A stretch of 64,000 nt of DNA, from assembly GCF_053078305.1 (NCBI RefSeq), contig NZ_CP166879.1; one strand, written 5' to 3'. Both the position numbers and the translations under genes were made by a program. This document shows, piece after piece, positions 38,355 through 47,345 of the stretch. Each line of letters starts with the position of its first letter. Position 1 is the first letter of the stretch. The notes beneath the pieces were generated by a model that saw nothing but the letters and a program-made list of their open reading frames with translations, had not been told where the DNA came from and did no database searches.

Positions 38355-38368
38355 TCTATTGAAGAATG

Positions 38369-38399
38369 CCGGATACGAATGGTTTCGTGTCGTATCCGG
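38369..38399 (+). terminator. Stem-loop downstream of yicI (possible terminator)
   Basis: 10-bp perfect inverted repeat ccggatacga / tcgtatccgg with 11-nt loop; no strong T tract. Confidence 0.35.
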
Positions 38400-38648
38400 T
38401 AAATAATCTCACATCTGGTAATAAATATTTCTTCCATCGTATTTGCGAGCATGATCACGATTATTCATCGCGAAAATGTGATCTGTGCTGAAAAATATCC
38501 CTTAACCGCCTTGCTTTGTTTTATCACTGTCCGGATTACGGACAGATTTTAGTATTGTTGTGAAATTATTCTGCTTTATATTTACCCTCAGAGATGGCAA
38601 CTGAAGCTCTTCCTCATGGGGCTTCTTAATCTGTGATAAGGGTAAAAA

Positions 38649-40202
38649 ATGCAAATGATTACCTCGCGACAAAACAGATTATTACGATTCCTTTTACCTC
38701 GAAGGGAATATACGACTATTGTTAAGATTGCCGGCTATTTAAATGTTTCGGAAAAAACCATTCAACGTGATTTACGTTTACTTGAGCAATGGCTGGGGCA
38801 ATGGAGAATAAATGTTGAGAAGCGTGCTGGCGCGGGTGTGATGTTAAGCGCGGAGAATATTGCTGATTTGCTGCATCTTGATCATTTGTTGGGAGCAGAA
38901 TGTGAAGAGATTGATGGTGTAATGAATAATGCCAGGCGCGTTAAAATAGCGTCGCAGTTATTAAGTGAAACACCGAATGAAACGTCGATCAGTAAATTGT
39001 CAGAACGCTACTTTATCAGCGGAGCCTCTATTGTTAATGACCTGAGAGTAATTGAGTCCTGGCTTGCGCCGTTGGGGTTATCGTTGATCCGCAGCCCAAG
39101 TGGTACGCATATTGAAGGTAGTGAAGGGCAAGTCCGACAGGCAATGGCATTACTGATTAACAGCATTATTAACCATAATGAGCCGCAAGGTGTCGTGTAT
39201 TCACGTCTGGATCCCGGAAGTTATAAAGCATTAGTCCATTATTTTGGAGAAGAAGAGGTGTTATTTGTCCAGTCATTGTTACTGGATATGGAAAATGAAT
39301 TAAGTTGGTCTTTGGGAGAACCTTATTACGTTAACATTTTTACTCACATCCTTATTATGATGTATCGCAACACGCACGGGAATGCGTTATCAAGAGAAGA
39401 AGATCAAACCAGGCAATATGATGAAAATATCTTTAATGTTGCCAGTCAGATGATTCATAAGATAGAACAACGAATTGCACATACATTGCCCGATGATGAA
39501 GTCTGGTTTATTTATCAATATATCATTTCATCAGGTGTGGCGATTGATGGACAAAAAGATGTTAGCATTATTTCACATATGCAGGCCAGCAATGAAGCGC
39601 GTCTTATTACCTGGCGTTTAATTACGGTATTCAGTGACATCGTGGACTGCGATTTTAGTGAAGACAGCGCATTATATGATGGCTTATTGGTGCATATTAA
39701 ACCGCTGATTAACCGACTAAATTATCGTATTCATATCCGTAATCCATTGCTGGAAGATATTAAAGCAGAATTAGCGGATGTCTGGCGGTTGACGCAATAT
39801 GTGGTGAATCAGGTATTTAAAACCTGGGGTGAGAATGCAGTGAGCGAGGATGAAGTGGGTTACCTGACCGTTCATTTTCAGGCTGCGATGGAGCGGCAAA
39901 TTGCCCGTAAACGTGTATTACTGGTCTGTTCAACCGGAATCGGAACTTCGCATCTACTGAAAAGCCGTATTCTGCGAGCATTTCCTGAATGGACGATTGT
40001 TGATGTTATTTCAGCAGCGAATTTATCACAGGTTTTGCCTGACAATATCGAACTGATTATTTCGACCATTAATTTGCCTACAGTCACTATGCCGGTCGCT
40101 TATGTTACCGCTTTTTTTAATGATGCCGATATTAAGCGGGTCACTGAAATGGTGATTACGGAAAAATTACATCATGCGACGTCTCGGGTCGTTGAAATTT
40201 AA
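38649..40202 (+). CDS. PRD-domain transcriptional regulator (BglG/MtlR/LicR family) with N-terminal HTH and PTS EIIB-like domain
   Basis: 517-aa ORF; N-terminal HTH (TIVKIAGYLNVSEKTIQRDLRLLEQ); EIIB(Gat)-like Cys motif (VLLVCSTGIGTSHLLKS); lies upstream of the PTS genes. Confidence 0.75.
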   Translation: MQMITSRQNRLLRFLLPRREYTTIVKIAGYLNVSEKTIQRDLRLLEQWLGQWRINVEKRAGAGVMLSAENIADLLHLDHLLGAECEEIDGVMNNARRVKIASQLLSETPNETSISKLSERYFISGASIVNDLRVIESWLAPLGLSLIRSPSGTHIEGSEGQVRQAMALLINSIINHNEPQGVVYSRLDPGSYKALVHYFGEEEVLFVQSLLLDMENELSWSLGEPYYVNIFTHILIMMYRNTHGNALSREEDQTRQYDENIFNVASQMIHKIEQRIAHTLPDDEVWFIYQYIISSGVAIDGQKDVSIISHMQASNEARLITWRLITVFSDIVDCDFSEDSALYDGLLVHIKPLINRLNYRIHIRNPLLEDIKAELADVWRLTQYVVNQVFKTWGENAVSEDEVGYLTVHFQAAMERQIARKRVLLVCSTGIGTSHLLKSRILRAFPEWTIVDVISAANLSQVLPDNIELIISTINLPTVTMPVAYVTAFFNDADIKRVTEMVITEKLHHATSRVVEI

Positions 40203-40228
40203 TGTCAGAATTTTATGAGGTATGACGA

Positions 40229-40699
40229 ATGGACATAACAAAAATCCTGAATACGAATCGCGTTATTTTAGATATGCAAGCGACGAATAAAGCGGAGGCG
40301 ATTGAAGAATTAACTAATCTTCTCAAAAAAGATGGTGCGATCGATTGTCGGGAAACCTTTATTAAAGATGTCTGGCAGCGCGAAGCGGAAGGCTCGACTG
40401 GTTTTGAAAATCATATTGCGATCCCGCATGGTAAATCTTCTGCGGTAATTAATACTACGCTGGCAATTGGCCGTACCCGCCAGGATATTCCCTGGGAAAC
40501 GCTGGATGGTAGTAGCGTGCGCTGTATTATTTTATTTGCGGTACGTCTTGAAGATCAAAATACCACCCATATCCGTTTACTTTCCCAGGTCGCGGGCGCG
40601 CTGGCGGATGATGACATCATAGAACAATTGTTAGTTGAGACGAGTCCGCAAAAAATCATTGATCTCTTTAGTCAGTATGCACAATCCGATGTCTGCTAA
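40229..40699 (+). CDS. PTS EIIA component (fructose/mannitol-type, EIIA-2 family)
   Basis: 156-aa ORF with phosphorylation-site His motif FENHIAIPHGKS. Confidence 0.8.
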   Translation: MDITKILNTNRVILDMQATNKAEAIEELTNLLKKDGAIDCRETFIKDVWQREAEGSTGFENHIAIPHGKSSAVINTTLAIGRTRQDIPWETLDGSSVRCIILFAVRLEDQNTTHIRLLSQVAGALADDDIIEQLLVETSPQKIIDLFSQYAQSDVC

Positions 40700-40716
40700 A
40701 TAACAGGGAGTATGTC

Positions 40717-41031
40717 ATGAATATTGTCTGTGTTGCCGCCTGTACGGCGGGTATTGCTCATACCTATATTGCTCGTGAAAAGTTAATCAAAGGAGCAAAA
40801 GCTCTGGGCCATACCATTAAAGTTGAAACCCAGGGAACCATTGGTACAGAAAATGAATTACAGGCGGCAGATATCTCTGCTGCTGACGTCGTGATTCTTG
40901 CTGTAGATGTGAAAATAAAAGGAGAAGAACGCTTCACCAATAAACGTATTGTGCGAGTAAAGACAGAGATCGTCATTAAATCGCCCGTTCAATTTCTTGA
41001 AAAGGTCGAAAAATCACTGGGAAACAAATGA
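40717..41031 (+). CDS. PTS EIIB component (fructose-like IIB)
   Basis: 104-aa ORF with active-site Cys near N-terminus (MNIVCVAACTAGIAHTYIA). Confidence 0.8.
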   Translation: MNIVCVAACTAGIAHTYIAREKLIKGAKALGHTIKVETQGTIGTENELQAADISAADVVILAVDVKIKGEERFTNKRIVRVKTEIVIKSPVQFLEKVEKSLGNK

Positions 41032-41055
41032 TCCTTATACTGGAGGGATCTTAAT

Positions 41056-42147
41056 ATGAAAGACAATAAAATTCCGGTTTCACAGGAAATTAAAAAACAT
41101 TTATTAACCGGCATCTCGTGGATGATACCCCTTATTGTGGCCGCCGGGATATGTATTGCGTTGGGGCAAGTTCTTGGCGGTACAGATGTTGGTGAAAAAA
41201 CAGGAACAATCCCGTGGATGCTTAATCAGATTGGCGGCTGGGGAATGGGGCTGATTGTGCCGCTGATTAGCGCGGCAATTGCCTATTCTATTGCCGATCG
41301 TCCCGGATTTGCCCCGGGTCTGATTGTCGGCTTTCTCTGTGGGCAAATCCATACCGGATTTATTGGCGGTATGTTGGGTGGTTTCCTGGTGGGCTACACC
41401 ATTTTGCTACTTAAACGCTATATCCGCCTGCCGCAGTCGATGCAAGGACTCATGCCAATCATGGTGTTGCCGGTATTAAGCACCATTATCGGTGGGCTGT
41501 TAATGATGACGCTGATTGGTAAACCCATCGCCTGGTTACAAGAAGCACTGATTCATTTGCTCGAGTCGATGCAGGGCGGATCGCGCTTCCTGATGGGGGC
41601 CATACTTGGCGCGATGGCAACCTTCGATTTCGGTGGTCCGGTCAACAAAACCATGTCGCTGTTTTCCGATGGCTTGCTGGTCAGTGGCGTCTACGGACCA
41701 GAAGCCGTGAAATTTGTCGGCTCAATCATCCCTCCGTTTGGCATCACACTTTCGTTCTTACTGACACGCCATAAATACACCCGTGCGGAGCGCGAGGCGC
41801 TGAAAGCCGCGTTTCCGATGGGGATCTGCATGATCACTGAAGGAGTCATTCCGATCGCCGCGCGTGACCTGCTGCGAGTAGTGGGATCTTGTGTGGTGGC
41901 ATCGGCGGTCGCGGGCGGCTTAATCATGGTGTGGGGCGTGGAGAGTCCGGTTCCGCATGGCGGCATGTTTGTTGTGCCTCTGTTCACCCATCCTCTGCTG
42001 TTTTGCCTGGCGCTGGGTATAGGCACGGTGATTTGTGGCGTGATGCTTTCACTCTGGAAGAAACCGGTAACGGAACGCGACGAAGAGTTTGACGAACTGA
42101 GCGATCAAAAGCTGAAAGATGAAGAGATCACTTTCACCCTCGAATAA
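41056..42147 (+). CDS. PTS EIIC permease (fructose-like IIC)
   Basis: 363-aa polytopic membrane ORF immediately after EIIB. Confidence 0.8.
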   Translation: MKDNKIPVSQEIKKHLLTGISWMIPLIVAAGICIALGQVLGGTDVGEKTGTIPWMLNQIGGWGMGLIVPLISAAIAYSIADRPGFAPGLIVGFLCGQIHTGFIGGMLGGFLVGYTILLLKRYIRLPQSMQGLMPIMVLPVLSTIIGGLLMMTLIGKPIAWLQEALIHLLESMQGGSRFLMGAILGAMATFDFGGPVNKTMSLFSDGLLVSGVYGPEAVKFVGSIIPPFGITLSFLLTRHKYTRAEREALKAAFPMGICMITEGVIPIAARDLLRVVGSCVVASAVAGGLIMVWGVESPVPHGGMFVVPLFTHPLLFCLALGIGTVICGVMLSLWKKPVTERDEEFDELSDQKLKDEEITFTLE

Positions 42148-42158
42148 CCGGAGGCCCT

Positions 42159-43010
42159 ATGTTTGCCGATATGAAAAGTATGGTGATGAAAGCCTGGCAT
42201 GAACATTACGCCTTGCTGGCGATCAACTGTATGAATCTGGAAAGTGCTTACGCAGCTATCCGCGTGGCGGAGAAGAATCGCGCTCCGATCATTCTCAATC
42301 TCTATCAGGGGCATCTGGCACATTTTCCTGCACCCGTCGCGGCGGCAGTGGTTAAAACGCTCGCGGAATCTGCCTCAGTACCGGTCACTCTGGCGCTTGA
42401 TCATGGCAAAAATCCGGACTGTATTCGTCAGGCGTTTCGTGCTGGTTTCAGCGGATTAATGATTGATGCTTCTGCTTTTCCCCTGGAGGAAAACGTGCGC
42501 CAGACCAGGGCGGTGGTGGAACTCGCCGCCAGCGCGCAGCTCTGCGTGGAAGGCGAACTGGGCCATCTGGCAGATGCGCCGCGTTACGACCAGGCCGCCA
42601 ATGCAGACATGATGACGCAACCCACTGATGTGGAACCGTTTATCGCGCAGACAGGCATTGATCTACTGGCTGTCTCTGTGGGTACGGCGCACGGCATGTA
42701 CGCGCCTGGTGTTGTACCTGCTATTGATTTTCAGCGTCTGGCGGAGATTTTCCACTGCTCGAGCGTGCCTCTGGCATTACATGGCGGTAGCGGTACGCCG
42801 TTCGATCAGCTCCAGCTCTGTACGACGCTGGGGGTAGCAAAAATCAACGTGGGGGCGGCCATTTTTGAACGGGGGAAATCCGCGCTCCTGCATACCCTCT
42901 GTCACGATATATCCATTGAACTGGTGGACGCGCTGAAAGCTATGGAACTGGCCTTCGAAGAAGCGATTACACCGTATTTACAGGCGAGCGGCTCTATCGG
43001 CAAAGCCTGA
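42159..43010 (+). CDS. Class II ketose-bisphosphate aldolase family protein (GatY/KbaY/FbaA-like), variant N-terminal motif
   Basis: 283-aa ORF with LALDHG, VSVGTAHG and LALHGGSG motifs (Zn-ligand His positions); canonical GAFNV substrate motif replaced by LAINCMNLE. Confidence 0.7.
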   Translation: MFADMKSMVMKAWHEHYALLAINCMNLESAYAAIRVAEKNRAPIILNLYQGHLAHFPAPVAAAVVKTLAESASVPVTLALDHGKNPDCIRQAFRAGFSGLMIDASAFPLEENVRQTRAVVELAASAQLCVEGELGHLADAPRYDQAANADMMTQPTDVEPFIAQTGIDLLAVSVGTAHGMYAPGVVPAIDFQRLAEIFHCSSVPLALHGGSGTPFDQLQLCTTLGVAKINVGAAIFERGKSALLHTLCHDISIELVDALKAMELAFEEAITPYLQASGSIGKA

Positions 43011-43090
43011 TTCATTTTCTGTCATGGCCTTTATGCCAGTGCAATAACGCACCGGCAGGGCGGACTACACGCTGAAACTGGAGATTTAAC

Positions 43091-43951
43091 ATGTTAGTTT
43101 CGATGAAAGAATTACTGCAACCTACCCGCCAGCACGGCTTTGCCATTGGCGCATTTAATGTGGCGGATAACTGTTTCCTTCGCGCAGTCGTGGATGAAGC
43201 AGAAGCGACAAATACTCCGGCGATTATTGCCATCCATCCCAGCGAACATGATTTTGTGGGCGATGCCTTTTTCGCTCACGTTCGCGAAATTACCCAGCGT
43301 AGTCCAGTCCCGTTTGTACTGCACCTCGATCATGGTGCCTCTGTAGAGCATGTTTTGCGTGCGATTCGCTGCGGATTTACCTCAGTAATGATCGACGGTT
43401 CGCTGCTGCCGTATGAAGAAAACGTGGCGCTGACCGCAGAAGTGGTTCGCCTCGCTCACGCGGTTGGCGTGTCGGTTGAGGGTGAACTGGGAACCATCGG
43501 ACAAACAGGAACGTCGGTAGAAGGTGGTGTTTCACAAGTGACCTACACAGATCCGGCGCAGGCCGCCGATTTTATTGCTCGTACAGGTGCCGACACACTG
43601 GCTGTGGCGATTGGTACAGCGCATGGCATCTATCCAAAAGGGATGCAACCGAAGCTGCAAATGAACATTTTGCGCGACATTGCCGGACGTATTGATATTC
43701 CGCTGGTACTACACGGTGGTTCGGCAAACCCGGACGCGGAGATTGCTGAATCAGTTACGCTCGGCGTCGGCAAAATCAATATCTCCAGCGATATGAAATA
43801 CGCCTATTTCCAGAAAGTGCGTGAAATTCTCGCTAAAGAGAGCTGGTGGGACCCGAACGTCATCTATCCGGATGCGATTAACGCGGCGCGGGAAGTCATT
43901 CGCCACAAAATGAAACTGTTCGGTTCGCTCGGTAAAGCATCACTGTACTAA
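43091..43951 (+). CDS. Class II ketose-bisphosphate aldolase (tagatose/fructose-bisphosphate aldolase family)
   Basis: 286-aa ORF with canonical GAFNV, LHLDHG, VAIGTAHG and LVLHGGS motifs. Confidence 0.75.
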   Translation: MLVSMKELLQPTRQHGFAIGAFNVADNCFLRAVVDEAEATNTPAIIAIHPSEHDFVGDAFFAHVREITQRSPVPFVLHLDHGASVEHVLRAIRCGFTSVMIDGSLLPYEENVALTAEVVRLAHAVGVSVEGELGTIGQTGTSVEGGVSQVTYTDPAQAADFIARTGADTLAVAIGTAHGIYPKGMQPKLQMNILRDIAGRIDIPLVLHGGSANPDAEIAESVTLGVGKINISSDMKYAYFQKVREILAKESWWDPNVIYPDAINAAREVIRHKMKLFGSLGKASLY

Positions 43952-43959
43952 GCCAGAAG

Positions 43960-43980
43960 GGCGGGGTGACCCGCCTTTTA
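43960..43980 (+). terminator. Short GC stem-loop plus T4 between aldolase and kinase genes (possible intra-operon attenuator)
   Basis: ggcggg-gtga-cccgcc followed by tttta. Confidence 0.35.
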
Positions 43981-43998
43981 CGCAACAAGGAACGAGAT

Positions 43999-44931
43999 AT
44001 GCACTATCTGGGGTTGGATATTGGTGGGACCAAAATCGCCGCCGTCGTCATGGATGCGCATGGCTGGGAGATTCGCCGTTACCGCTGCCCGACGCAAAAG
44101 TCGACATATCAACAATTTGTCTCATGCGTTGTGGCACTTATCGAGCAGATTAGGCGGGACGTTCAACGACCGATGCTGACAGGGATCGCCTTACCCGGCA
44201 GTATCTCGCCACTCACTGGCCTGATTAAAAACGCGAATATTCAGGTGATTAACGGTCATGCGTTACAGGCTGATTTGCAGCAATTGCTTGGGCAACCGGT
44301 GGTGATAGCCAATGATGGTAACTGTTTCGCGCTATCAGAAGCTTGCGACGGTGCCGGGCAAGATTATGACGTGGTATTTGGTATTACGCTTGGTACGGGC
44401 TGCGGCGGTGGCATTGCCATCAAGCAACGACCGTTTATAGGGGCCTGGGGAAATGCTGCCGAATGCGGTCATATCACGTTGCCAGGCTATACGGAGCAGG
44501 AAGATGGTCCATCAGTCAGTTGCTATTGCGGCAAACACAACTGCGTGGAGTCGTTTGTTTCCGGCAGCGGTTTTAGTGAACGCTATCAACAGATGACTGG
44601 TAACTTGCTCACTCCTGCGGCGATTGTCACCCTGGCACAACGTGGTGATGCTTGTGCCATGCAGCAGGTGGCACGTTTTCGCCAACAGCTTGCCCGCACG
44701 CTCGCAACCATCGTTAATGTTGTTGACCCTGGCGTGATTGTGATCGGCGGCGGGCTTTCGAATGTGGAACTGCTTATCACCGATCTGAACGCAGAAGTCG
44801 CTCCACTGGTTTTCACCGATCAATTCACCACTCCCATTGTAAAAGCACAGCACGGCGACAGTAGCGGAATGCGTGGCGCTGCCTGGCTTGCTATGCGCAA
44901 CGGAGAAGCCAATGAAACGTTCACAAATTAA
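43999..44931 (+). CDS. ROK-family sugar kinase
   Basis: ORF 43966..44931; likely start MHYLGLDIGGTKIAAV (ATG 43999, RBS aaggaacgag); ROK glycine-rich ATP motif and Cys-rich zinc motif (CYCGKHNC). Confidence 0.75.
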   Translation: MHYLGLDIGGTKIAAVVMDAHGWEIRRYRCPTQKSTYQQFVSCVVALIEQIRRDVQRPMLTGIALPGSISPLTGLIKNANIQVINGHALQADLQQLLGQPVVIANDGNCFALSEACDGAGQDYDVVFGITLGTGCGGGIAIKQRPFIGAWGNAAECGHITLPGYTEQEDGPSVSCYCGKHNCVESFVSGSGFSERYQQMTGNLLTPAAIVTLAQRGDACAMQQVARFRQQLARTLATIVNVVDPGVIVIGGGLSNVELLITDLNAEVAPLVFTDQFTTPIVKAQHGDSSGMRGAAWLAMRNGEANETFTN

Positions 44932-45592
44932 TTATGTTATTGATAAAGCACATGCCATTGCGCAGACCTTCCGCGTTTGTTTGCCAGAGTTCGCCTATTT
45001 TACGGTGGATGACTGGCTGCAGCGGGAACGGGATAACTGGCAAGAAGTGGTCGACTTACAGCTCGGTTGGGATATCACCGATTTTGGTCGTGGTGATTTC
45101 AACCAAACGGGACTAACACTGCTAACGATGCGCAACGGCGCGCTGGGGTCGGCGGCATATCCAAAACCGTATGCTGAGAAAATGTTGCAGATCCAACAAG
45201 ATCAGCAGACTCCCTGGCATTTTCACACCCACAAAATGGAAGATATCCTCAATCGGGGCGGTGGAGACTTATGCATGCAGTTGGCCTGGGCCAACGAAGC
45301 CAGTCTCTGTGATGATCAACGAGTCATTACCGTGAGTGTTGATGGTCAGCGGCGTACCATGAAACCTGGTGAAACGCTGGTGTTAAAGCCGGGGCAGGGC
45401 ATTTGCCTGCCGCCGCGTCTGTATCATCGCTTCTGGGCGGAAAAAGCGTTTGTTCTCGGCTGGGAAATTTCGATGGTAAATGATGACCAACACGATAACT
45501 ATTTTCTTGAGCCGGGAGGACGTTTTCCTGCGATAGAAGAAGATGAACCGGTGAAATGGTTATTGTGCAGTGAGTATGGAATTTTGCGCTAA
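44912..45592 (+). CDS. Cupin-fold sugar isomerase, D-lyxose/D-mannose isomerase-like (YdaE family)
   Basis: ORF 44873..45592; probable start MKRSQINYV (44912) overlapping the kinase 3' end by 20 nt; metal-binding His cluster WHFHTHK. Confidence 0.6.
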   Translation: MKRSQINYVIDKAHAIAQTFRVCLPEFAYFTVDDWLQRERDNWQEVVDLQLGWDITDFGRGDFNQTGLTLLTMRNGALGSAAYPKPYAEKMLQIQQDQQTPWHFHTHKMEDILNRGGGDLCMQLAWANEASLCDDQRVITVSVDGQRRTMKPGETLVLKPGQGICLPPRLYHRFWAEKAFVLGWEISMVNDDQHDNYFLEPGGRFPAIEEDEPVKWLLCSEYGILR

Positions 45593-45601
45593 TAACGGGG
45601 A

Positions 45602-45637
45602 ACGCTAGCGCTGATATCCGCTAGCGTCCTTATTTTT
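45602..45637. terminator. Hairpin terminator at the junction of the sugar island and convergent yicH
   Basis: acgctagcg-ctgatatc-cgctagcgt followed by ccttattttt. Confidence 0.55.
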
Positions 45638-47345
45638 ACTGCGCCGGCTCCGTCGACGTAACTTCACCACTGGAAACTACGCCCGCATTCATGGTTTGAG
45701 TCACTTGCTGCTTTGCGGCGTTCACGGCATGCAATTGCCCGCTAACCGTAGGTTTCAGCGGGACATTGGCCTGAATATCGCCACTGGCGGTAAGCTGAAT
45801 ATTGCCGTCGCCAGTCAACGGTAATTCAGGCCATCCCCAATGTTGCAAAATATTCACCGGCACACCGCGTCCATTCAGGCTGATATGGGTCTGACGTTGT
45901 GGCGTTTGTGAAACACTGGCGGTGGCTTCCAGAATGCCTTTTTCAGTAAATGCACTCAGTTCGCTGATATTCACCGTGCTGCTGTTGGCGGTTAGCGCCA
46001 GCGATGGACGACGGACATCAACACGATTAAACGTCGCGGCGGCGGCATTCAGATTCGCCGAACCACTCCAGACGCCCCATTTATGATCGGTGACCAGCGT
46101 CAGGTTGGCACCGTAACCATCGAGCGCGGTGAGCTGCCACGGGAAGTCAGGGTCGATATCAATGATCAGATTGCGGCTGGCGCTAAATCTCTTCAGTTGC
46201 AGGCTGTTTAACCAACCCGGTGTCGTTTCCATCCACAACTGTTGCCAGTTTTTCGGCAAGGTATATTCCAGCCCGGCAATTGCCGCATCATCAAGGAGTA
46301 ACGTTTTCCCGTCACGCAGCCAGTTCCCTGACGTTCTGACCATACCCCCTTCCCAGCGGCTGGTGAACTGGCGCAGCGCTACGCCCTGCGGGGAAAATTC
46401 CGCGTTTATAATCGGGTCAAATAAATGCAGCGAACCATAAATGAACTCGCTAGCGTTCATCGACAGTTTGCCTTCTTGTGTCTGCCAGTCATCTTTACTG
46501 AAGGTCATGTTGCGCAAGCTGAGATCGAGGTCGGTCACCGCCCAGTCCGGACCTTGCAGACGAGCATCGATCACTTCCAGGCGACCAATCTGCAACGACG
46601 GGACAGAGCGTAATGGTGCAAAGAAGTCGGTTAGCGATTTTTCGCTTTGTAGACGGATATCCGCCATGCGCAGATTTTCCACTTGCCAGCTGCCGTCGGC
46701 GTTACGCTGCGCGTTTCCGGTTAATGTCCCGCGCGCGATGTCGGCACCCAGGTTAGTCAGCGTAACGCGATCGTTATCAATACTGCCTTCAATCAGTACA
46801 TTGGTGGCAGGAACATCATTGAGCGAAAGCGATCCGGCACTAAACTGAATCTGCGCCTTCGTACCCAGCACTTTACCGGCTTCTGGTGACCACGGAACCA
46901 CGCCGCCATTTACCCGCTGCGCGCTCAGTTTCCATTCGCTATTCGGGCTATTAAACGCCATATCACGCAGTTGCAGACGATCGGCTTTGAACGGTAGCGG
47001 CGCGGTCTGGTCGGTGAGATTCAGCGTTCCGTTTTCCAGCAGGATGGTATCGACATGGCGTGGTTCGGTCAGTTGCCGACTACTTAGCGCAATGTCGACA
47101 CTTTTGGCCACCAGGGTCGCGGGCTGGCCATCACGACCAAACGTGACGTTCTCCAGCACAATATGAGATGGCGCGGAAAAACGGTGATCCATCGCCCCGA
47201 AGGCCAGATGATAGTCGCTATTCTCGGAAACCCATGCGCTGATATGTTCTGCTCCCCAGCGGGTTTGCAGAAGAAAATAGAGGCCAGCGATCACCACTAA
47301 CAGAGCGATGAGAATGTAGAGAAGCAGCTTCCCAATAAATTTCAT
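45636..47345 (-). CDS. yicH: AsmA-family protein YicH
   Basis: ORF 45636..47369; conserved form begins MKFIGKLLLYILIALLVVIAGLYF (N-terminal TM anchor). Confidence 0.85.
   Translation of the reverse strand: MKFIGKLLLYILIALLVVIAGLYFLLQTRWGAEHISAWVSENSDYHLAFGAMDHRFSAPSHIVLENVTFGRDGQPATLVAKSVDIALSSRQLTEPRHVDTILLENGTLNLTDQTAPLPFKADRLQLRDMAFNSPNSEWKLSAQRVNGGVVPWSPEAGKVLGTKAQIQFSAGSLSLNDVPATNVLIEGSIDNDRVTLTNLGADIARGTLTGNAQRNADGSWQVENLRMADIRLQSEKSLTDFFAPLRSVPSLQIGRLEVIDARLQGPDWAVTDLDLSLRNMTFSKDDWQTQEGKLSMNASEFIYGSLHLFDPIINAEFSPQGVALRQFTSRWEGGMVRTSGNWLRDGKTLLLDDAAIAGLEYTLPKNWQQLWMETTPGWLNSLQLKRFSASRNLIIDIDPDFPWQLTALDGYGANLTLVTDHKWGVWSGSANLNAAAATFNRVDVRRPSLALTANSSTVNISELSAFTEKGILEATASVSQTPQRQTHISLNGRGVPVNILQHWGWPELPLTGDGNIQLTASGDIQANVPLKPTVSGQLHAVNAAKQQVTQTMNAGVVSSGEVTSTEPAQ

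Follow-up and report, generated by a model that had tools for sequence, protein, structure and literature searches.

The eight co-oriented genes situated between yicI and yicH in the 64-kb stretch of DNA that we analyzed (hereafter the window) are the frz operon of extraintestinal pathogenic E. coli (Rouquet et al. 2009, J Bacteriol 191:4427), and the cluster is hence a rediscovery of an already known locus. The reading that we regard as reasonably probable is that a CRP-assisted sigma-70 promoter, activated by the self-encoded regulator FrzR, drives an operon for uptake of a fructose-like sugar and its cleavage by aldolases, and that this locus is an old one, lost in K-12.

Identity, setting and age of the locus

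The eight ORFs occupy positions 38649-45592 of the plus strand in the order regulator, EIIA, EIIB, EIIC, aldolase 1, aldolase 2, ROK kinase and cupin, with a strong family match for every one of them (Table 1), which bears out the gene content and family assignments of an earlier note on this DNA. The primers published for frz PCR align without mismatch at 39054-39073 and 39877-39896, both within frzR, and the amplicon predicted from them equals the published 843 bp. The genome paper of strain BEN2908 lists the frz operon as 'GR 27, yicH..yicI' (3991916..3999198; 7283 bases); the yicI-to-yicH distance in the window is 7281 bases, and with locus, gene set and gene order all equal and the size within 2 bases, we found no material difference between the two. 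In its accessible portions, the frz literature reports a single transcribed operon, in which 'frz orf4' is the PTS fructose IIC subunit, and ascribes to it an aid to late-stationary-phase survival under oxygen restriction and a bias of the fim switch toward the ON state, with effects on type-1 fimbriae and adhesion; fitness effects of its deletion and its use as a virulence marker of APEC are likewise on record there. The description of the cluster as uncharacterised in the earlier note thus does not hold. That note also judged the substrate not to be evident, a view that stands, and named a match to a characterised operon of known substrate as what would speak against it: the operon is indeed characterised, but the literature searched, which comprised papers other than Rouquet et al. 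2009 itself, names no substrate for it, so that family membership is what carries the case for a catabolic role.

In the RefSeq annotation of the river isolate D8, whose genome and cluster are 100% identical to those of the window strain (most other frz-positive genomes match the cluster at 98-99.4%), all eight genes recur, with yicJ-yicI to their left and yicH-xanP-gltS to their right; this annotation starts the kinase gene at 43999 and the cupin gene at 44912, in both cases later than the longest ORF. As previously claimed, yicI and yicH adjoin each other in K-12 MG1655, where they are convergent and separated by only a 52-bp spacer, and when this junction is aligned with the window, the extra DNA falls at about 38395-45630. 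The earlier span of 38355-45640 stands as to content but reaches 5 bases inside yicH at its 3' end, the stop codon of this gene occupying 45636-45638 on the minus strand. Of 5426 complete E. coli genomes, 1601 have the cluster and 3818 an empty junction, leaving frz missing from about 70%.

The order yicJI-frz-yicH-xanP was also recovered in another Escherichia species, at least 13 Citrobacter genomes, Superficieibacter, three Klebsiella species and Phytobacter ursingii. Relative to Citrobacter, the Frz proteins are 76-96% and those of the flanking genes 82-96% identical, synonymous divergence is saturated in both alike, and dN/dS is 0.02-0.08 in seven frz genes (0.06 for frzR), the synonymous sites of the cupin gene being too saturated for its computation. 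These low ratios show purifying selection and mark the genes as functional. As at least five other genera have the cluster at the same yicI-yicH site, with core-like divergence, the K-12 state looks like a deletion; hence, we posit that frz is likely to be an old enterobacterial locus, which K-12-like E. coli have lost, rather than the insertion it had been taken for. In one Salmonella-like contig frz lies on the opposite side of yicJI, next to integrase and transposase fragments, and further genera carry frz-like clusters in unrelated contexts, so that the cluster has moved horizontally as well.

Comparison of these clusters separates a conserved core, namely the regulator, the PTS and both aldolases, which are always kept, from two accessory genes, those for the ROK kinase and the cupin. 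Pantoea clusters comprise the core only, Brenneria adds the ROK kinase and lacks the cupin, many Citrobacter and Superficieibacter clusters have the cupin without the ROK gene, and in Izhakiella the latter is broken. Being absent from otherwise intact clusters, neither enzyme is likely to be an obligatory step, which leaves the earlier proposal that both are integral to one linear route unsupported.

Table 1. Features of the frz locus and their positions in the window.
Feature	Position	Strand	Description
CRP-like site	38441..38462	+	core TGCGA-N6-TCACG at 38444-38459; upstream of the frz promoter
Palindrome CTGTCCGGATTACGGACAG	38527..38545	+	core TGTCC-N7-9-GGACA; candidate FrzR operator
Putative sigma-70 promoter	38555..38582	+	-35 TTGTTG 38555-38560, 16-bp spacer, -10 TATATT 38577-38582
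frzR	38649..40202	+	PRD-containing transcriptional activator, 517 aa
frzA	40229..40699	+	PTS EIIA, fructose family, 156 aa; TIGR00848 127 bits (cut-off 103.5)
frzB	40717..41031	+	PTS EIIB, fructose family, 104 aa; TIGR00829 100 bits (cut-off 76.85)
frzC (frz orf4)	41056..42147	+	PTS EIIC, fructose family, 363 aa; TIGR01427 311.6 bits (cut-off 157.55)
Aldolase 1	42159..43010	+	divergent class II (PF01116) aldolase, 283 aa
Spacer between aldolase genes	43011..43090	+	conserved, 80 nt, imperfect hairpin
Aldolase 2	43091..43951	+	class II ketose-bisphosphate aldolase, 286 aa
ROK-family sugar kinase	43999..44931	+	310 aa; RefSeq start, longest ORF from 43966
Cupin	44912..45592	+	D-lyxose/D-mannose isomerase family, 226 aa
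Intrinsic-terminator-like hairpin and T-run	45602..45637	+	terminator scan: 9-bp stem with 6 GC pairs, then CCTTATTTTT

Control elements and encoded proteins

The leader upstream of frzR contains several blocks that are conserved in an alignment of enterobacterial frz leaders. The CRP-like block, kept in 13-14 of them, departs from the consensus TGTGA-N6-TCACA by one mismatch per half-site, and we infer that it is a CRP target on which expression of frz would depend; an invariant TGTGATCT lies 3' of it (38477-38484). The palindrome adjoins the -35 hexamer, and in 14 leaders its 5-bp arms hardly change, whereas its spacer varies without base pairing being kept, a pattern expected where a protein binds and not of an RNA hairpin. 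No second palindrome of this type was found in the window beyond the copy at the frz promoter, and it is likely to be the FrzR operator. Both hexamers of the putative promoter fall inside blocks that are invariant across the 14 taxa aligned, even though a simple consensus promoter scan did not list it. Neighboring genes of the operon are 11-80 bp apart, except for those of the kinase and cupin, which overlap; the terminator-like hairpin between the cupin and yicH stop codons closes the unit.

FrzC falls below every equivalog cut-off, including that of FruA, the top-scoring equivalog model (297 versus 793 bits). With 94-97% identity between genera and a dN/dS of 0.017, no other Frz protein is as well conserved. 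The two aldolases are only 33% identical to each other. Aldolase 1 is below all NCBIfam cut-offs, and its best matches among solved structures, FBA, AgaY/KbaY and YdjI, are about equidistant (E around 1e-40). Its Asp81-His82, His178, His208 and Asn230 align with the zinc and active-site residues of AgaY, but the Gly-rich loop with Glu142 is replaced by HLADAPRYD, a replacement kept down to 58%-identical homologues in Pantoea and Brenneria. With the usual catalytic-loop glutamate absent, aldolase 1 may not be an ordinary bisphosphate aldolase. Aldolase 2 retains the Gly-rich loop with its Glu and exceeds the cut-off of NF006042, a model for the PRK08185 subfamily that names no function (524.9 versus 405 bits), while remaining under the FBA, GatY and KbaY equivalog cut-offs. 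The spacer between the two genes keeps its length and stem-loop in 7 genera, with weak covariation, and has no match to an Rfam family.

The top NCBIfam model for the kinase is the Mak fructokinase PRK09557, at 318.7 bits against a cut-off of 443; among solved structures, NagK-type kinases come closest to it (E = 1e-54), and it bears the ROK zinc motif CYCGKHNCVE. The cupin matches the E. coli O157 Z5688 sugar isomerase (3KMH/3MPB; E = 3e-64) with its HxH...E...H motifs aligned, and scores 271 bits against the 350 cut-off of the NF051472 equivalog; PF07385 (Lyx_isomer) is recorded for a 99%-identical protein.

Proposed working of frz and competing explanations

We infer that frz is a single transcription unit in which FrzA, FrzB and FrzC would import and phosphorylate a fructose-like sugar, most likely a ketose phosphorylated at C1, with FrzR reading the PTS phosphorylation state such that the operon would be on when substrate flows. 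The two dissimilar class II aldolases would then cleave the phosphosugar to triose phosphates, either directly or after a second phosphorylation; as frz encodes no 1-phosphate kinase of the PfkB type, a 1,6-bisphosphate would have to be made by a host enzyme, presumably a housekeeping kinase of the FruK or PfkA type. The ROK kinase and the lyxose/mannose-isomerase-like cupin might constitute a non-obligatory accessory branch, probably converting a free aldose via the ketose to a ketose phosphate that enters the same aldolase step. The gene families thus support the broad outline already given in the earlier note, a route that starts at a PTS and ends with cleavage by class II aldolases. This catabolic model leaves the presence of two aldolases without an explanation.

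A linear route in a horizontally acquired island, with the PTS product receiving its second phosphate from the operon's own kinase, the cupin turning aldose into ketose along the way and the bisphosphate finally being cleaved by the aldolases, appears unlikely. Every enzyme class that it calls for is present in the E. coli cluster, and the absence of the cluster from K-12 and most complete genomes, its movement in some lineages and the lower G+C content (40-43%) of its first 2.5 kb would all fit such an origin. However, Pantoea, Brenneria, Citrobacter and Superficieibacter dispense with the kinase, the cupin or both, the shared site and core-like divergence speak against a recent insertion in E. 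coli, and ROK kinases, including the closest relative Mak, phosphorylate free sugars and not sugar 1-phosphates. In another reading, the aldolases would split a PTS-made ketose 1-phosphate to DHAP and a free aldose, which the cupin and ROK kinase would then salvage. Such a scheme would suit the kinase-less core of PTS and two aldolases, the non-canonical loop of aldolase 1, and the pairing of a cupin with a Mak-like kinase, as needed for a free manno- or lyxo-configured aldose. YdjI, a PF01116 enzyme that acts on a ketose monophosphate, equals the bisphosphate aldolases in its closeness to both frz enzymes, and the layout of a Salmonella island coding for a 62%-identical cupin, a PF01116 aldolase, a PfkB kinase and an alcohol dehydrogenase suggests a comparable cleavage of a monophosphate to DHAP and an aldehyde. 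Were this so, the substrate would be a higher-carbon or unusual ketose, such as a heptulose or octulose. Nevertheless, the scheme is purely inferential, a housekeeping kinase could equally supply the second phosphate, and no such substrate is reported for E. coli; we consider it the least probable of the readings weighed here.

The frz operon might be mainly a sensory PTS, with FrzABC and FrzR reporting the environmental or metabolic state and adjusting other genes, such as those behind the fim switch and stationary-phase fitness, while the enzymes only shape a signaling metabolite and provide no meaningful carbon. The phenotypes given in the accessible portions of the frz literature are regulatory or fitness-related, in LB, serum and the gut, rather than growth on a defined sugar; the want of a reported substrate and the PRD and EIIB-like modules of FrzR, typical of phosphorylation-controlled regulators, point the same way. 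Against this stand the joint retention in many genera, with strong purifying selection, of everything needed for transport and cleavage, the permease being the most constrained of these proteins, the restriction of the FrzR-type palindrome to the frz promoter within the window, and a conserved CRP-like site of the kind typical for catabolic operons. We therefore doubt the mainly sensory role about as much as the linear route, and favor the catabolic model.

Relation to known systems

Like GatY and KbaY (AgaY, PDB 1GVF), both frz aldolases are PF01116 proteins of about 285 aa with the zinc ligands and the Asp-His pair kept. They are of low identity, as judged by eye from alignments, to these and other solved class II aldolases and miss the GatY and KbaY equivalog cut-offs; the GatZ/KbaZ partner is not encoded in frz, and aldolase 1 is further set apart by its missing Glu142 loop. 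The cupin, while of the same family as the D-lyxose/D-mannose isomerase Z5688 (EcSI) of O157:H7, is its paralogue rather than its orthologue. More distant members of this family adjoin ABC or MFS transporters of free sugars; the frz cupin, in contrast, follows a PTS, an awkward fit given that its known relatives act on free sugars.

FrzR (Pfam domains HTH_11 7-63, Mga 100-169, PRD 209-294, PRD 324-413 and PTS_IIB-like 422-498) resembles the MtlR/LicR/ManR-type PRD activators of Firmicutes in its two HTH/Mga regions, two PRDs and an EIIB-like domain with a conserved cysteine, and, like them, is encoded with the PTS presumably under its control; it differs in missing their C-terminal EIIA-like domain, for which the Pfam domain search gave no match in FrzR. 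The fru2 operon of Streptococcus agalactiae has metabolic enzymes different from those of frz. Patron et al. call it a Frz homologue.

With E. coli fruBKA, frz shares fructose-family EIIA, EIIB and EIIC. The product of the fruBKA fructose PTS is a ketose 1-phosphate. The frz PTS misses all FruA and FruB equivalog cut-offs, consists of three separate proteins, and comes without a FruK-type 1-phosphofructokinase; in place of Cra control it has its own PRD activator, to which two dedicated aldolases are added.

Identity of the cluster with the frz operon

The eight-gene cluster lying between yicI and yicH is the already known frz operon, a carbohydrate operon that citing papers trace to the work of Rouquet et al. 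(2009) on BEN2908, an ExPEC strain of avian origin. The BEN2908 genome paper lists the frz operon as genomic region 27 (GR 27), at 3991916..3999198 between yicH and yicI, and reports it from every ExPEC and AIEC strain of its comparison and not from K-12; in the window the yicI-to-yicH interval measures 7281 bases. Another paper describes 'frz orf4' as the PTS fructose IIC subunit, in agreement with the fourth gene of the window cluster, which codes for EIIC. Moreover, a veterinary PCR study gives the sequences of frz-specific primers with a product of 843 bp; both match the window exactly and in opposite orientations, span exactly 843 bp, and would be expected to have no matches by chance. 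The earlier note had taken the cluster to be uncharacterised, a view displaced by these primer matches, GR 27 and the EIIC identity of orf4, frz having been named in 2009 and now serving as a marker of APEC/ExPEC.

The RefSeq annotation of E. coli D8, a river isolate that is 100% identical, contains the same eight genes with yicJ-yicI to the left and yicH-xanP-gltS to the right. Their products agree with the set that the 2009 abstract is said to list, namely an Mga-type PTS activator, three fructose-family PTS subunits, two class II ketose-bisphosphate aldolases, a ROK kinase and a cupin, of which only the assignment of orf4 as EIIC is confirmed from a paper. In K-12 MG1655, the convergent yicI and yicH are separated by 52 bp; when this junction is aligned to the window the common flanks stop at ~38395 and restart at ~45630, with the yicI-proximal hairpin present in both. 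The ORFs, the D8 annotation and this alignment together bear out the earlier note's claim of an eight-gene cluster at a site empty in K-12. At least 80% of the frz cluster is found in 1601 of the 5426 complete E. coli genomes and the uninterrupted K-12-type junction in 3818 of them, pointing to a clean two-state polymorphism at the yicI-yicH site.

Window coordinates of the frz genes, their leader and associated features
Feature	Position	Strand	Description
Low-G+C patch	33500-33999		35% G+C
rhuM pseudogene fragment	~34017-34178		beside selC; RefSeq annotation, identical strain
tRNA-Sec (selC)	34257-34351	-	upstream of yicJ
CRP-like site	38444-38459		TGCGA-N6-TCACG; leader conservation
Invariant block	38477-38484		TGTGATCT; leader conservation
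Palindrome	38528-38544		TGTCC-N7-9-GGACA; arms nearly invariant, spacer varies without keeping pairing
Putative promoter	38555-38582		TTGTTG, 16-bp spacer, TATATT; directly 3' of the palindrome, conserved ribosome-binding site after
frz cluster	38649-45592	+	eight co-oriented ORFs; gaps 11-80 bp, one overlap
Regulator (FrzR)		+	517 aa
EIIA		+	156 aa
EIIB		+	104 aa
EIIC		+	363 aa
Published frz primer	39054-39073	+	exact match
Published frz primer	39877-39896	-	exact match
Aldolase 1		+	283 aa
Inter-aldolase spacer	43011-43090		80 nt
Aldolase 2		+	286 aa
ROK kinase		+	follows aldolase 2
Cupin		+	follows ROK kinase
Terminator-like hairpin	45602-45637		with T-run; closes operon

Reviews describe frz as transcribed as one operon, as aiding late stationary phase survival under oxygen restriction, serum growth and gut colonisation, and as biasing the type 1 fimbrial switch to the ON orientation; they likewise report that its deletion lowers fitness when oxygen is restricted or late in stationary phase, and turns the fim switch to OFF. 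The literature searchable here names no frz substrate, and the earlier note's remark that the substrate is not evident stands. Searches of the same literature for frzR, Z5688 or a link to yicJI were likewise empty.

A probable old locus with lineage-specific losses

We traced the cupin and aldolase 1 orthologues to their contigs and observed the gene order yicJ-yicI-frz-yicH-xanP-gltS in Escherichia sp. MOD1-EC7003, at least 13 Citrobacter genomes, two Superficieibacter species, Klebsiella grimontii, K. michiganensis, K. aerogenes and Phytobacter ursingii. Between E. coli and Citrobacter the frz proteins show 76-96% identity, compared to 82-96% for YicI, YicH, XanP and GltS. Synonymous divergence is saturated in both frz and its flanks (dS of 1.1-2.4 for the computable frz genes, ~1.6-1.7 for yicI and yicH, and ~0.9-1.0 for xanP and gltS), and dN/dS is 0.02-0.08 in seven of the eight frz genes, the synonymous sites of the cupin being too saturated for computation. 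Had the cluster entered E. coli recently, its divergence would not be expected to match that of the core at one shared site in five genera; a recent insertion is thus unlikely, and the earlier note's description of the cluster as inserted is not supported. The simpler reading of these comparisons is that frz is an old locus that was lost by K-12-like lineages.

The cluster has also moved: it is located elsewhere in the genomes of Izhakiella, Buttiauxella, Kosakonia, Pantoea and Brenneria, and on a Salmonella-like contig it lies on the opposite side of yicJI, adjoining integrase and transposase fragments. On a Brenneria-like contig (L048, 5440-11757) a seven-gene frz-like cluster that has the ROK kinase and lacks the cupin is embedded midway in a nitrogenase (nif) gene cluster. 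In K. aerogenes (L005/L006, 10747-14910) genes for an extra RpiR regulator, a GH4 6-phospho-glycosidase and a PTS EIICB are lodged between frz and yicH; this additional module suggests that the yicI-yicH interval accumulates sugar modules.

Within the window operon there is a sharp step in G+C content, from 40-43% in the regulator, EIIA and EIIB genes (38500-41000) to 51-58% in the rest from ~41500. Just upstream of yicJ, the segment at 33500-34351, with selC, the rhuM fragment and the low-G+C patch, appears to be what is left of an island associated with selC. A search of the region for known RNA families (Rfam) recovered tRNA-Sec alone.

Regulation, core and accessory enzymes

The regulator combines HTH_11, Mga, two PRDs and an EIIB-like domain, and ends just past the latter. 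It hence possesses all the elements of the MtlR/LicR-type PRD activators (HTH, Mga, PRD1, PRD2, EIIB-like and EIIA-like) except for the EIIA-like domain, and this domain set argues for a DNA-binding activator of that kind rather than a BglG antiterminator; the RefSeq name 'BglG family antiterminator' fits its DNA-binding N-terminus poorly. When the 300 nt preceding frzR were aligned for 14 taxa, four conserved blocks emerged, from which we infer that the frz leader is a CRP-assisted, FrzR-activated sigma-70 promoter. The palindrome occurs a single time in the 64-kb window, with no second FrzR-type copy near yicJ to link frz to yicJI. Going by the RefSeq name, a hairpin at 38527-38545 might terminate the leader or be bound by an antiterminator; this reading was rejected, since only its 5-bp arms are conserved, its inner pairing is not kept and FrzR has HTH/Mga domains. 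In Citrobacter youngae (L018) an insertion of ~120 bp separates the promoter blocks from the frzR start codon.

The gene complement varies around a constant portion. In Pantoea the cluster consists only of the genes for the regulator, EIIA, EIIB, EIIC and the two aldolases, and in Brenneria the ROK kinase is added to this core without the cupin. In many Citrobacter, Superficieibacter and Buttiauxella warmboldiae the ROK gene is absent and the cupin directly follows aldolase 2; in Izhakiella the ROK gene is broken, and in two Kosakonia genomes the cupin is lost or truncated, in one of them along with truncation of the kinase. The frz core comprises six genes, for the regulator, the PTS and two aldolases, and the kinase and cupin are optional; being missing or damaged in several genera, they are not obligatory pathway steps.

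The PTS subunits exceed the cut-offs of their families (EIIA, TIGR00848, 127 against 103.5; EIIB, TIGR00829, 100 against 76.85; EIIC, TIGR01427, 311.6 against 157.55). Among NCBIfam equivalogs of transporters with known substrates (FruA/FruB, MngA, Frv, Frw) all remained below cut-off, e.g. FruA with 297 against 793 and MngA with 249.6 against 763.

Both aldolases belong to class II (PF01116) and are about equally distant from the solved FBP aldolases, AgaY/KbaY and YdjI. Neither reaches the cut-offs of the NCBIfam FBA, GatY or KbaY equivalogs, and aldolase 2 passes only NF006042, a subfamily without a named function. Their mutual identity of 33% rules out a recent duplication as their source. 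The zinc-ligand histidines and the Asp-His pair are retained (D81/H82/H178/H208 of aldolase 1 aligning with D82/H83/H180/H208 of AgaY), and these columns are invariant in aldolase 1, aldolase 2 and a Salmonella paralogue. The mobile Gly-rich loop of the family carries a catalytic glutamate (AgaY Glu142, FbaA Glu182), known as a proton shuttle from class II FBP aldolases. Aldolase 2 keeps the Gly-rich loop with this Glu, TIGQTGTSVEGG, as does the Salmonella paralogue. In aldolase 1 the mobile loop instead reads HLADAPRYD, with Pro141 opposite Glu142 of the AgaY Gly-Gly-Val-Glu142; five close orthologues all share this replacement, which persists as GELGH[LI]ADAPxY in proteins of 58-61% identity from Pantoea, Brenneria, Gibbsiella and Sodalis. 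With the proton-shuttling glutamate replaced, aldolase 1 is likely to be mechanistically different or no standard bisphosphate aldolase. Across seven genera the spacer between the two aldolase genes is of conserved length and an imperfect stem-loop is preserved in it; covariation is weak, and no Rfam family matches. The spacer could serve in processing or stability of the mRNA, or as a regulatory site inside the operon.

The kinase belongs to the ROK family, whose zinc motif (consensus CxCGxxGCxE) it displays as CYCGKHNCVE, with PF00480 recorded on its orthologues; among the equivalogs Mak, NagK and AlsK it is closest to the Mak fructokinase model, below whose cut-off it falls (318.7 against 443). 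The cupin matches the structure of the O157 Z5688 D-lyxose/D-mannose isomerase (3KMH) with E = 3e-64, their alignment preserving the metal motifs HFH...ED and LYH..FWAE of the Lyx_isomer fold, and PF07385 is recorded for near-identical proteins. At 271.2 bits it does not reach the cut-off of 350 of the D-lyxose/D-mannose isomerase (EcSI type) equivalog, which rules out membership in the Z5688 orthologue group. More distant homologues of the cupin, from Clostridiales and other metagenome contigs, lie in unrelated surroundings that give no hint of a substrate.

Proposed working and relation to known sugar systems

We posit that the Frz PTS phosphorylates a fructose-like sugar during its entry, and that FrzR would use its PRDs and its EIIB-like cysteine to read the phosphorylation state of HPr and Frz, activating the operon once the substrate is present and catabolite repression has been lifted. 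The phosphosugar might then pass to the two aldolases, directly or after the action of a host kinase, to yield triose phosphates. In clusters that have them, the cupin and Mak-like kinase may supply the same pool from a free aldose of manno or lyxo configuration or, alternatively, recover an aldose freed by cleavage of a monophosphate. Less probable rivals are a mainly sensory role for the locus, and the linear route of the earlier note, from PTS through kinase and isomerase to aldolase, which the optional status of both these enzymes across genera weakens. A further rival is the direct cleavage of the ketose 1-phosphate of an unusual ketose. In its fullest form, which we consider improbable, the invariant core of a fructose-family PTS and two anciently diverged class II aldolases, one lacking the catalytic-glutamate loop, would define an undescribed catabolic route: a ketose 1-phosphate made by the PTS, whose parent sugar may be a rare ketose or a higher-carbon one from plants or the bacterial envelope, would be split into DHAP and a free aldose, which the two optional enzymes, cupin isomerase and Mak-like kinase, would salvage.

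In an integrase-flanked island of Salmonella enterica (ABIXHX010000001.1; L007, 7598-14541), a cupin that shares 62% identity with that of Frz is encoded together with an MFS transporter, an aldose 1-epimerase, a PF01116 aldolase, a PfkB kinase, a zinc alcohol dehydrogenase and a DeoR regulator. Its layout suggests a possible route of isomerase, 1-kinase, aldolase and aldehyde reductase for a rare or deoxy aldose; to our knowledge, this island is uncharacterised.

Our analysis rediscovers an operon that was described in 2009 and serves as an APEC/ExPEC marker, and adds nothing categorical to it; the ancestral locus with losses, the six-gene core, the atypical aldolase 1 and the conserved promoter architecture may be new, if incremental, points. 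As the locus looks ancestral and repeatedly lost, its association with virulence would reflect retention in certain lineages rather than acquisition. The questions thereby sharpened are which sugar is handled and how a sugar operon affects type 1 fimbriae and stress fitness; identification of the sugar would explain the retention of the locus in extraintestinal pathogenic lineages and its loss in K-12-like ones.

Among known systems, fru, gat and aga have components similar to those of frz, which yet fails every equivalog test for them. It likewise differs from the enterobacterial D-tagatose PTS pathway of the TagK and GatYZ type, in that its eight genes include neither a PfkB-type ketose-1-phosphate kinase nor a GatZ/KbaZ-type partner subunit.
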